Translations under genes and position numbers: made by a program
The notes under the pieces: generated by a model
Databases searched by the model: none
The model's input: only the letters and a program-made list of their open reading frames with translations
Told to the model about the DNA's origin: nothing
Shown here: piece after piece, positions 2,159 to 61,920 of the stretch
How positions within the stretch are numbered: position 1 is the stretch's first letter
Layout of the letters: each line of letters begins with the position of its first letter
Source: Octopus sinensis
Lineage: Eukaryota
NCBI RefSeq assembly: GCF_006345805.1
Contig: NC_042998.1
Coordinates: 156,116,001 to 156,180,000, forward strand
Direction: 5' to 3'
DNA length: 64,000 nt

Positions 2159-2658
2159 ATATTATTGGTGAATTGAAGAAATGGAGCTGAACGAAGATTG
2201 AACAGAAATCGTTTTATTTCATTCTACACGTGTTTCGAAAGGCACAATTTACCATGGGCTCTTAGGAGCCTAGTTCGATTTGCCATGGGCTCTTAGGAGC
2301 CTAGTTCGACTTGTTTTGCTCCGCCTCTGTTCTGTTTTTGTTTTTTCCAACGGATTTCCTATTTCTTCCTGAAGAGAAAGACACAATATGGTCTCATTAT
2401 TCAATCGGATTTTGGTAAATTGTGCCTTTCGAAACACGTGTAGAATGAAATAAAACGATTTCTGTTCAATCTTCGTTCAGCTCCATTTCTTCAATTCACC
2501 AATAATATTAAAATTCAATTATCCGCACCAACGCACGGTTGCAACACCATATGGTTGTACCTCCAACCGTGCTGTCTTCTGCTGTGATTTTTGCTACCAA
2601 GGTATCGGTTAAACTTTTGATTAATCTGCTACAAGATTATTCATCTTTCTATTTCACA
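2159..2658 (+). mobile_element. Small non-coding hammerhead-bearing element (PLE-pLTR/retrozyme-like) with a 5' inverted duplication, inserted in (TA)n
   Basis: About 96-bp inverted repeat (2159-2254 vs 2413-2508), a 27-bp tandem duplication at the junction (2252-2278/2283-2309), an internal hammerhead, and (TA)n on both sides. Confidence 0.7.
2361..2451 (+). ncRNA. Type-I hammerhead ribozyme, canonical core, palindromic helix III
   Basis: ATTTCTTC-CTGAAGA(2369-2375)-helix II GAAAGACACAAT...ATTGTGCCTTTC-GAAA(2431)-CACGTG-TA^-GAATGAAAT. Helix I pairs with one bulge; predicted cut after A2442. Confidence 0.8.
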
Positions 2659-2764
2659 TAATATATATATATATATATATATAATACATTAATAAATAAA
2701 ATAAAACATATGCATATATATAAACATATATGTACGTACCTACCTCTACATGTACATATACACG

Positions 2765-3180
2765 CATATATGAGTACAGGACACCAAAAGGACGTCGAAC
2801 ACAATGAGAAACGAAAACATAGACACAAACCAAAGGAACTGGACATTTTTTTTAAAAACAGCAAAAAAAAAAATAGAGTACAGGACAATTAACACAAAGA
2901 AAAAAACCCTTCTTCAGTCGCTAAAGGTTTCATCTACTCTACGTTTCGAGGGGTAAAAGCGAGACGTATCTTCGACAAGAAACTTTCCTTCCTGCGAAAA
3001 GCAAATCAATTAAAATTCTGAGATCTTTTCGCAGAGGGGTAAAAAATGGTAGCAAAAACAGGACAGTAACGACAGTGCAAATTATAAACAGTAAAAGACA
3101 GGACAATGAAATACAAGATAAGAAAGGCTGTTAACGCCGAACGAAAAAAAGTATTGCGAACGCAGAATTTTTTATGAACG
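2765..3180 (-). mobile_element. Probable PLE-pLTR-like repeat with degenerate hammerhead-like motifs
   Basis: The minus strand reads GTTTC-TTGTCGA-A-GA...TC-GAAACGTA...GAAAC (2927-2983) followed by CTGAAGAAGGG (2907-2917); flanked by TA-rich tracts. Confidence 0.4.
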
Positions 3181-3237
3181 ACATACATATATATATATAC
3201 ATATAAATTTCTATTTGTATATATACGTATATACAAA

Positions 3238-3850
3238 GGCACGTTTTCATTCCGTTTATAAAGCGAATCACGGGTGGAAATGCGATCCAAAAGGTTCTTC
3301 TCACTCAACTCATGTGGTACCCAAACATCGTAGCGATTTGTGTACCCAAGCTTTACCAGGTGCTCATGAACGACGGATTTTGATAGGCTGAGGCTTTCTG
3401 CCAATTCTCGGGTTGTGCAATGTGGGTTATTCTCAATTAATGACTTGATTTGGTCATCATCTGTAGTGGATGGTCTGCCTGATCGCTCTTTATCAATAAG
3501 GCTACAATCTCCAGCTCGGACCCTTGCGATCCACTTCCGTACAGTTCTTTCGGATAAAGAAACATCACCGAAAACTGCGCATATTTCTTTGGTTGCTTGT
3601 GTGGCATTTATCCCTTAACAGAAAAAGAAGAGCATCAAGTGCCGAAAATGAACTTTCTTATCTTCCATTTTAAAGGGTTACAGAATTAACGCAGGTTATA
3701 GGAACATAAACCTTCTTCCACGAAAAGATAGATTAAACTGTACTCTAAATGAAGGTGTAGTCAAATCCTATTTTATGGACTCAACCATGTTCTAAAATAA
3801 GTCGAAAGGTAAGCTACTATAAATCGGCACGAACTTTCCGGACAACCCAA
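3238..3850 (-). mobile_element. Mariner transposon, 5' half (TIR + HTH region of transposase pseudogene)
   Basis: TIR TTGGGTTGTCCGGAAAGTTCGTGCCGATTT (3850-3821) next to TA. From ATG at 3668 it reads MEDKKVHFRHLMLF..*..RSGRPSTTDDDQIKSLIENNP..TTRELA..WVPHEL, truncated shortly after the mariner WVPHEL linker. Confidence 0.9.
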
Positions 3851-58850: not shown

Positions 58851-59559
58851 TAAAATGTTGTGCATGTTGAACATACATAAGCATGTTTCCAAATATAAAC
58901 GCAAGGAATTATTCAACATGGTAGATACATATATTTGCGCTTTTTATACAGCTGTATACGTGTGTAACTTGAGTATAAATACAACAATGACCGTTAAAGG
59001 ATAAGCAGGCCGAAATTTCGAAGTCACTGCCAACACTATACTTGTTAAAAAATGATAATAAATGTATTCTATAAAAAGTATTGAGTAAGTTAAATGTAAA
59101 ATTGTTTTTATTATCACTCAACATGAAAACAGGTATTATTTACCTCCCACTTAAAGTGGACGTTGTGTTAGAAGCAGAATACTCCGTTATTTACCACGAG
59201 AAGACTTCTCATATAGACATGTAGTGCATAAAAGCACTTGTGTTTATATCGCTGGTGAGCAAGAACCATCCGCTACGGCTTCTGAAACTGGCAGATCACG
59301 TGATTTAGGCCTCCCTAAATGTCCGGCTAGACATAGCAACCGATTCTCCGTCAGTGTTGTATATAGAATCTCAGTGCCTAATCAGGCACTGATGTTGCAA
59401 ATAGCCAGAGGGTTTATTAAAAATGATTAATAACAAAAGGTAATATTTATCTCTCAAAGTAGCGGGCATGGTTATATGGTTAGAAGTTTGCATTCCAACC
59501 ACATGGTTCGGCTCAGTTTCACTGTTTGGCTCCTTGGCCAAGTGTCTTCTGTTATAGCC

Positions 59560-60142
59560 CTGTAATGTAGTTCATGGATTCACTGAAGATGCGTTTACTG
59601 TGAAAAACTTCACAGCCTGGAAAAGTAGGGGCTGGAAAAGGACATTTTGACAGGGAGCAAATATCAGTGTTCCTATTCGTGGTGATCATGAGCTTTCAGC
59701 TTGAGATGGGAGGCAAACAATTGAAAAGAGCAGACATCGACGACAATGCACCCGATCTGCATTAATCCAAGGAACATAGCTGGCTCTGAAATCATTGGAA
59801 AAGATAGCCTCTTGGTCGCGTGGGAAACTCAGTTTAGTAAAATCTCGAAGCCTTTGACAAATGACATCTTCAGAATCCAAGTGTCTGTCAACAACCAAAG
59901 AAGCGAGAATCCTATACATTAGGAAGAACTTTTGTTGTTTATAAATGAGAGAGAGAGAGAGAGAGAGAGGTAGAGAAAGATAGAGAGTAAGAGAAAGCGA
60001 GGGAGAGTCCGAGAGAAATGAAGAGTAAGAGAGTGGGAAAGTGAGAGAGAAAGGTGAGAGAAACAAAGAGGGAGAATGTGGTGATAAAAAGCAGAAAGGA
60101 AGCGACAGAAAGTAACAACCACACTCTTACCGTAAGCTAGTC
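59560..60142 (-). mobile_element. Second copy (5' part) of the Helitron-like element at 49741
   Basis: Minus strand actagc..ggtaagagtgtggttgttact...ctcggactctccctcgc...ataaacaacaaaag matches 49741-50260 without the SINE insert. The left boundary is approximate. Confidence 0.7.
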
Positions 60143-61846
60143 TTATATATATATATATATATATACATGCACATAAATATCGGTTGGCTCTGATGAGCGT
60201 AAAGTTATATGATCGGATTGTAATATTTACGTAACACTGATCAAGATGGATATTTAATACTATAGACTTTGGATAATACACACACACACACACACACACA
60301 AACACACACACATACACACACACACAAACACACACACAAACACACACACAAACACACACACACACACACAACACACACACACACACACACACACACACAT
60401 ATATATATATATATATATACTATTAATATTTGTATGTATGCTATGTATACATGTATGTATATGTGTGTGTATAAAATTACATTATAGAAGAGTAATGGTA
60501 AATATTTTCTTTAAGGCACATATACTATTATATTTATTTTTGTTCTATTTTGTGAGAGTATTCATTATCTGGTCAATGACACTATTCAACTTGTGTATAT
60601 TTGTATGTGAGCTTGTGTATGGGTATATTTGGAAAAACATGTAAGTATCTGTGTGTATATATGTCTGTGCATGTTTATGTTTGTGCATATGTGTGTGTGT
60701 GTGTAATATATAAATATATATATATAGTTATATACGTGTTTGTACAAATACACACACATACATACACACACGCACGCACGCACACACAAACACACACATA
60801 CACATATACATGTGCTTACGCAAAGTAAAATTTTAAATACGACACAACTATAGTGCCGTGTGCTGTTGCACACACGCACGCACGCACACACAAACACACA
60901 CGCACACACACGCACGCACGCACGCACACACACACACCACACACACACACACACACACACACATACACATATACATGTGCTTACGCAAAGTAAAATTTTA
61001 AATACGACACAACTATAGTGCCGTGTGCTATTGCGAATCCACTTTCTTACAAATCCTAACACATGTCTCGGTCAGACAGTGAATCAGCAGTTTGACAGGA
61101 TCTATTTCTGGCCGTCTAGCCTAGAACATTCACCAGTTAAAGAGAGAGGCAGCTGGCTTGTTGCTTATCATGTAGCTAGTATGACTACAAGTAGGCAGGC
61201 AGACATTTGCGATTTGTTTACGTATAACAATGGAATGTACAATATTATATCAAAAGTAGTTGCACGTACGCAGTGTCGATATTACACACACACACACACC
61301 ACACACACACACACACACACACACACACACACACACTATCTATCTATCTATCTATCTATCTATCTATCTATCTATCTATCTATCTATCTATCTATCTATC
61401 TATCTATCTATTTATCAATCTATCCGCGTGTGCGCGCGTGCGAGTATGTGCGTATACATATATTTATATACAAACATATATGCACTCACGCATAAATACA
61501 TGTATATATATATGTACATGTATGTACACGCACATTCTTTGTGTCTCTTTCTCCCCCCCTCTATCTATCTATCTATCTATCATCCATCCATCCATCCATC
61601 CATCCATCCATCCATCCATCTATCTATCTATCTATCTATCTATCTATCTATCTATCTATATATCTATCTATCTATCTATCTATCTATCTATCTATCTATT
61701 TAAGTCACAATATATGGATTCAAAGTAACCCGGTAGTACTCATAAAAATATCTCCTTAATATTTGAATTTTCTTATTGATAATAAAATTTCATCAAACTA
61801 TTTCTCTCTCTTCTCTTATTCAATGTTTTTTTTCTCTCGTTATGAT

Positions 61847-61920
61847 ATGTGGTTTGTGCCTGAAGAATATGCTTGAGATATTTCTCAACATATGAAACTA
61901 TTAGAAGCTCTTAAAGACAT
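61847..61920 (+). ncRNA. Hammerhead-like motif, probably inactivated
   Basis: CTGAAGA(61860)-ATATGcTTGAGA tatt TCTCAACATAT-GAAA(61894)-CTATTAG; the expected U16.1 is A and helix I is imperfect. Confidence 0.55.

Follow-up and report, generated by a model that had tools for sequence, protein, structure and literature searches.

A permuted, probably split-core hammerhead candidate among ordinary type I motifs of Penelope-like elements in an octopus genome

We analysed a 64-kb window of the Octopus sinensis genome (assembly GCF_006345805.1, contig NC_042998.1, positions 156,116,001 to 156,180,000 of the forward strand; 64,000 nucleotides), in which an initial annotation had seen ten type I hammerhead-like folds. 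Judging from sequence, we consider it likely that the window holds ordinary type I motifs in repeats of Penelope-like elements (PLEs) together with one copy of a different element, family B, whose hammerhead is permuted, likely opened after A9 and likely self-cutting in the cell. We also lean, if only slightly, towards a wider proposal. In it, this split-core topology, with its core opened between A9 and G10.1, its helix II built from an upstream strand and its three helices all crossing one another, would lie beyond the six permutations thought possible; it would cleave itself in vivo, be the missing ribozyme of Naiad PLEs and determine where thousands of non-autonomous insertions in an animal genome have their 5' ends. 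In the literature searched we found no permuted, probably split-core hammerhead in print.

The candidate, site 2927, lies on the minus strand in a truncated copy of the family B unit. The predicted parts of the fold are given in window positions:

2661..3182, minus strand: family B unit copy, 5'-truncated, between TA tracts, 95.6% identical to locus L066 over 524 columns
2891..2996, minus strand: permuted split-core hammerhead candidate of family B
2991-2987, minus strand: helix II 5' strand
2983-2979, minus strand: helix III extension
2968-2964, minus strand: helix III 3' strand
between 2963 and 2962, minus strand: predicted GUC cut
2962-2958, minus strand: helix I 3' strand
2952-2948, minus strand: helix II 3' strand
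2947-2944, minus strand: GAAA
2944-2940, minus strand: helix III 5' strand
2938-2935, minus strand: AGUA internal loop
2931-2927, minus strand: helix III extension partner
2922-2918, minus strand: helix I 5' strand
2917-2911, minus strand: CUGAAGA
2910-2895, minus strand: hairpin

The GUC cut site (2963) is followed by GAAA (2947-2944) and then by CUGAAGA (2917-2911), an order that is not that of a type I hammerhead but of a non-circularly permuted one. Readings of the site as type I or as circularly permuted (type II/III) were tried by hand and failed. UACGU/ACGUA makes up helix III and UCGCU/AGCGA helix I. Bases lying 5' of helix I extend helix III, in place of the extra stem that connects the distal ends of helices I and II in type-SGC ribozymes. 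A descriptor for the order cut site, GAAA, CUGANGA (S-G-C) gave one match in the window and 0 strict matches in 100 shuffles. The same descriptor found three further families with different stems in flanks that had been retrieved for other purposes.

Relatives of each of the ten sites were retrieved from the 2.72-Gb genome. Two GAAA-CUGANGA patterns yielded 3,975 and 5,394 matches, two overlapping sets, against 1 and 17 for controls made of the reversed patterns. The cut-site block, which is absent from both search patterns, pairs in 22/30, 15/25 and 53/90 motifs compared with 187/11,000 shuffled ones, five duplicate loci having been removed in scoring the first two sets; the motifs that fail are mostly truncated copies. 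Family B carries CUGANGA, GAAA and an NUH cut site, although the core words and NUH were partly required by the searches. Despite their different stems, the families retain CUGANGA, GAAA, the A15.1-U16.1 pair and a nucleotide other than G at position 17. When metagenome contigs were scanned with the pattern, 90 stretches were obtained; 0 of the 85 scorable matches contained the cut-site block, so that no environmental relatives were found.

Covariation in an alignment of 24 hand-picked intact copies, with three Naiad rows left out, shows helix I, helix III, the helix III extension and a helix II formed with an upstream strand. Two-sided changes occur at 4/5 pairs of helix I, 4/5 of helix III and 3/5 of upstream helix II, and 91% of alignment cells pair compared with 39-54% in slid controls.

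The strand before GAAA (CCUUC or UGCUC) is complementary to an upstream GAAGG or GAGCA, and in 35 of 42 intact copies at least 4/5 pairs of this upstream helix are Watson-Crick, whereas the strand after CUGANGA reaches that level in 0/42. Upstream strands swapped across families paired in 0/224 and 27/224 cases, those swapped within families in 487/784 and 48/64. The window copy has a single A-C mismatch in helix II. Family B is likely a hammerhead opened after A9, the point at which PLE ribozymes carry an extra nucleotide.

The nearest published form is the type-SGC hammerhead (HRIMA-1 and variants), validated in vitro and, in the available part of the source, reported solely from metatranscriptome virus-like RNAs and from no genome of a known organism (Eckert et al. 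2023, PMC10085705). There helix II directly follows CUGANGA, and that block is treated as unbreakable (PMC10085705). Family B shares with this type the S-G-C block order, the crossing helices, the short helix I-II linker and the complete set of core nucleotides. It differs from type-SGC, as far as the latter is described there, in its upstream best-supported helix II partner, in its long helix III extension with an AGUA/GAA-type internal loop, and in its presence in thousands of animal retroelement copies. That family B is a plain type-SGC ribozyme, with helix II formed by CCUUC and the GGG that follows CUGANGA and with the upstream pairing serving as an inactive, switch-like fold, seems to us improbable. 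G-C, G-U and G-U/G-C pairs are possible in most copies, so that with G-U allowed the downstream helix forms in 27/42 copies and 91.6% of cells pair, and both the extra nucleotide after A9 and the 3-4 nt helix I-II linker are as in published SGC ribozymes. However, Watson-Crick pairing downstream falls short in every copy as stated above, the only two-sided change of this helix goes to G-U and the search patterns had in part imposed the GGG, while the upstream strand covaries at three positions and pairs in the Naiad_Ovul consensus too.

The family B unit is non-coding, measures about 840-880 bp and occurs in (TA)n as monomers and head-to-tail dimers, with truncations and inversions. Head-to-tail units were found at loci L062, L066, L084 and L085 and two-motif tandems at L066, L084, L085 and L269. 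Copies have a median identity of 96%, and sister families show the same layout. Non-coding tandem units with one hammerhead each are what is expected of retrozymes, but the type I fold is lacking in family B. Parts of the unit were present in 20 of 24 listed sequencing runs under five organism labels, and no RNA run holding it is on record among the listed runs. Where assembled contigs turn back on the unit, their junctions match the genomic tandem, and these contigs were not counted as evidence of circles, strand or transcript ends. No partner coding for a reverse transcriptase (RT) was found for family B, nor for families D and E described below. The PLE open reading frame (ORF) upstream of L267 was considered as a partner of family B and rejected as a neighbour, since a TA tract lies between them. 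The conserved AAGTAAG stretch at the start of family B and sister units (L066, L269, L232, L235) is similar to a 5' splice site and precedes a long pyrimidine tract; introns in the 5' untranslated region (UTR) have been described for PLEs (PMC8557442). In the window, a truncated mariner (Mos1-type helix-turn-helix, 3200-3850, minus strand) adjoins the family B copy at its 5' end, with a TA tract at the junction.

The insertions themselves carry a possible trace of cleavage. The 5' ends were scored in 70 copies chosen by sequence from CUGAAGA onward, 30 of which ran beyond the scored region. Of the 40 mappable ends, 17 fall at +1 to +12 relative to the predicted cut, and the following 31 nt contain only 5 (p about 7e-11 and 2e-6). 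A partly overlapping set of copies has 25/90 ends at 0 to +14, about four of which are internal deletions. Family C, one of the type I families, has 1-2 of 14 ends there, and neither it nor its relative C' shows a pile-up at the cut; for family A, with 4 of about 16 ends at +1 to +7, two of them from one insertion, the numbers are too few for a call. If RT runs off near a cleaved 5' end, insertion starts would pile up there, and we take this to be the probable origin of the family B peak.

A link to Naiad PLEs comes from their 3' ends. In the available text of Craig et al. (2021, PMC8557442) no canonical hammerhead is reported for Naiads and no fold is proposed for the 3' half cores, 35-50 nt apart, for which eight families are marked 'HHR_half_core'. 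Read by eye, the 3' ends of the Naiad_Obim and Naiad_Ovul consensus sequences have the strand order and helices of family B, including a perfect 6-bp upstream helix II, and Naiad_Esco has the strand order and helices I and III. The Naiad 3'-end motif gave 184 matches in this genome versus 0 for controls and lies directly behind a Naiad RT at L552, at 4/30 close RT loci and at 3/15 more distant ones. Family B further resembles the Naiads described in PMC8557442 in its (TA)n targets, 5' truncation, partial tandems and inversions. Unlike them it has no ORF, and no sequence similarity was found between family B and Naiad bodies.

From these data a mechanism may be proposed. From 5' to 3' the ribozyme would consist of the helix II 5' strand, the cut-site block, the GAAA block, the CUGANGA block and a short hairpin. 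Its crossing helices would rebuild a normal hammerhead core, in which the hairpin and a weak fourth helix would replace the single extra A9/G10.1 nucleotide of PLE hammerheads, and the long helix III might allow a single copy to cut as a monomer. Cleavage of tandem or read-through transcripts would yield unit-length RNA with its 5' end at the cut site, which a PLE RT, probably of Naiad type, would copy into (TA)n, running off near the 5' end.

Several observations weigh against a cleaving, A9-opened ribozyme. The general swap control is modest, with 852/2,496 across families versus 298/474 within. The hairpin after A9 is 86.5% paired but has no two-sided change, and the fourth, junction-closing helix is mostly G-U, was judged by eye and is tentative. 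Pseudoknot-free folding of the window copy did not recover the helices and gave a competing upstream hairpin (z = 0.12). The 5'-end peak lies at +6/+7 and not at +1, end positions are blurred by TA microhomology, and the +1 to +12 interval was chosen after inspection of the data. No RT-coding element bearing a B-type motif was found, and the Naiads of cephalopods have by description (PMC8557442) been inactive for a long time, at odds with the high identity of family B copies. Finally, an anole PLE did not require hammerhead cleavage for its insertion in vitro, and no reads started at the cut (PMC11167929).

Some of these points would fit a conserved structure without meaningful cutting, such as a site where a PLE protein binds or stops and RT stalls, and we regard this explanation as quite unlikely. 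The offset of the 5'-end peak agrees with it, as do the poor cutting of minimal PLE hammerheads in vitro and the dispensability of cleavage in the anole PLE (PMC11167929). Against it, core nucleotides are kept across families with differing stems, bearing in mind that core words and NUH were partly search-required. Moreover, at +6 the 3' partners of all helices would already have been copied, leaving little to stall RT.

The rest of the window is more conventional. A type I descriptor recovered six folds, with cores at 2369(+), 4351(+), 8624(+), 20312(-), 32408(+) and 33137(-), against a chance expectation of 0.36 per window on average and 2 at most (200 dinucleotide shuffles). Of the ten type I folds of the initial annotation these six stand, while site 2927 has another strand order, the fold at 38303 is weak and 60190(+) and 61860(+) are broken, the former having lost its GAAA half and the latter carrying U16.1 -> A. 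Both core halves are nevertheless present in 19/30 relatives of 60190 (family F, with one two-sided change in helix II) and in 17/30 relatives of 61860 (family G), so that these two sites are dead copies of genuine type I hammerhead families. Rfam listed 150 of 178 matches in the window, and hammerheads are absent among those listed, which are microsatellite-driven microRNA matches. The ten sites fall into seven or eight sequence contexts, in agreement with the at least five unrelated ones suggested before: 4351, 8624 and 20312 form one family (97-99% identity) and 32408 is a relative at 75%. The palindromic or near-palindromic helix III, the flanking TA tracts and the inverted or partial-tandem layouts were also seen as annotated.

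The hammerhead-related features outside family B are as follows:

2163..2504, plus strand: family A, young PLE represented by its 3' end, which includes a 92-bp arm in inverted orientation; endonuclease ORF upstream in 12/30 loci
core 2369-2375, plus strand: family A canonical type I hammerhead with palindromic helix III; predicted GUA cut after 2442
3904..8743, plus strand: near-complete family C PLE, terminal repeats around an interrupted RT and GIY-YIG ORF
4122-4469 and 8396-8743, plus strand: family C terminal repeats, 99.4% identical
4346..4383, plus strand: minimal type I hammerhead of family C, core CUGUUGA with U at position 6
about 5107-7990, plus strand: interrupted RT and GIY-YIG ORF of the family C PLE
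8619..8656, plus strand: minimal type I hammerhead of family C in the 3' terminal repeat
20175..20472, minus strand: isolated (solo) terminal repeat of family C, 97.7% identical to 4195-4487; hammerhead core 20312-20306
31700..32530, plus strand: truncated family C' PLE end with a minimal hammerhead (core 32408-32414)
32795..33613, minus strand: family D, non-coding 563-bp unit present in 1.45 copies, giving a 256-bp direct repeat; type I core 33137-33131
38177..38460, minus strand: family E, inverted element only ~200 bp long whose 5' end is fixed; weak hammerhead-like fold at 38303
60175..60275, plus strand: family F, dead copy of a canonical type I hammerhead, GAAA half deleted
61808..61930, plus strand: family G, degenerate type I hammerhead copy of a PLE terminal-repeat family, U16.1 -> A

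Upstream PLE coding sequence in the same orientation was found in 12/20 loci of family C, 8/19 of C', 12/30 of A, 6/30 of G, where some loci overlap one another, and 1/30 of F. It was found in 0/30 loci of family B, 0/30 of E and none of family D in two partly overlapping sets of 28 and 30 loci (0/28 in the former). By their sequence, families A, C, C' and G are best described as terminal repeats of protein-coding PLEs, and a fifth family probably is as well. Most hammerhead units of the window are therefore truncated PLE ends, a pattern described by Cervera and De la Pena (2014, PMC4209133), and type I motifs in PLE terminal repeats are known biology and routine by themselves. The annotated link to PLEs thus stands, whereas the idea that the units are non-autonomous and Neptune-mobilised gives way for most of them to remnants of terminal repeats of autonomous PLEs, which is largely the outcome that the annotation itself had named as refuting it; families B and D remain as non-coding tandem units.

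The element at 3904-8743 has the RT, C-terminal GIY-YIG and hammerhead-bearing terminal repeats of an endonuclease-bearing PLE. Its ORF matches RVT_1 (E 6e-4) and GIY-YIG (E 0.003), both below the curated cut-offs, and has 1,096 homologues, the closest being 55-56% identical. Three same-strand pairs of family C repeats 4.3-4.6 kb apart (G000:C1:116562262-116566643, C2:77060330-77064971, C2:81467356-81471814) are probably further near-complete copies. A second PLE is represented at 11519-13053 by rearranged, inverted fragments, which share about 75% identity with the family C ORF and in which no hammerhead was found. Among the PLE families of the window, the CX2-5CxxC linker common to Neptune and Nematis was found only in C and C'. 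The family A endonuclease lacks both this linker and CCHH and has C-terminal CxxC and CxH as described for Hydra; families A and G follow Hydra-like endonucleases.

Families A, C, C', D, F and G share the palindromic helix III of the minimal type I hammerheads described for PLEs, whose further traits, an extra nucleotide often found after A9, solo copies and opposite-strand pairs, also recur here (Cervera and De la Pena 2014, PMC4209133). They depart from that description in the U at position 6 of C and C' and the extra A before GAAA in D, as family B does in not being type I. The U replaces A in 19/20 copies of C and 18/18 of C' with all helices still paired; such U6-type variants may already have been described in print.

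The structure at 38303(-) amounts to no more than a weak minimal fold of U3-A8 type whose helix I has 3 bp; it failed the type I descriptor, and inspection of 30 copies revealed no compensatory changes. We regard it as unproven. Two sets of 30 and 6 family E loci contain no ORF. Copies of the family (38177-38460, L543-L548) share a single fixed start ~45 nt upstream of the supposed cut, which suggests that the RNA end is set by a promoter or by cleavage farther upstream. One family E fragment lies inside a Naiad 3' UTR (L551).

Family D is the exception among the type I sites and looks like a retrozyme-like unit, combining non-coding partial tandems with a type I hammerhead. Its helix III occurs as palindrome variants with compensatory changes, an extra A precedes GAAA, and the genome holds 94 intact cores. 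Non-LTR (non-long-terminal-repeat) retrozymes, for which an origin from PLEs has been proposed (Cervera and De la Pena 2020, PMC7229834; Li et al. 2026, 10.64898/2026.07.22.740005), resemble families B and D in their non-coding tandem units with one hammerhead each. As described in these sources, known units are ~150-450 bp, type I and arranged in long arrays, whereas family B is about 850 bp and permuted and family D 563 bp, mostly in 1-2 units. Extending this to all ten sites, as type I hammerheads of non-autonomous retrozymes mobilised by Neptune, is in our view highly improbable. Family D fits such an origin by its layout, fold and compensatory palindrome changes, and family E is likewise without an ORF, but it is refuted for A, C, C' and G by the attached PLE coding sequence and for B by a fold that is not type I, and even in D only 1 head-to-tail pair was found among the 94 cores.

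Other repeats complete the window. Broken frames of a LINE-type (long interspersed element) endonuclease and RT lie at 50122-52707 (plus strand) and 30402-31435 (minus strand), and further inverted-repeat elements in which no hammerhead was detected at 19011-19503, 34505-35112 and 62525-63902. Short repeats similar to short interspersed elements, present in many copies and often adjoining hammerhead elements, occupy 1181-1334, 10094-10503, 18435-18866, 19940-20127, 20510-20692, 32572-32734 and 36973-37158.

If the permuted fold of family B is real, the occurrence of a split form in an animal genome in thousands of copies would broaden the rules for hammerhead folds, and standard descriptors would be overlooking a whole class of hammerheads. 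The split-core form would also explain why Naiad elements seemed to be without a ribozyme. The pile-up of insertion starts would then be a genomic read-out of cleavage, through which the role of hammerheads in PLEs would become directly testable.

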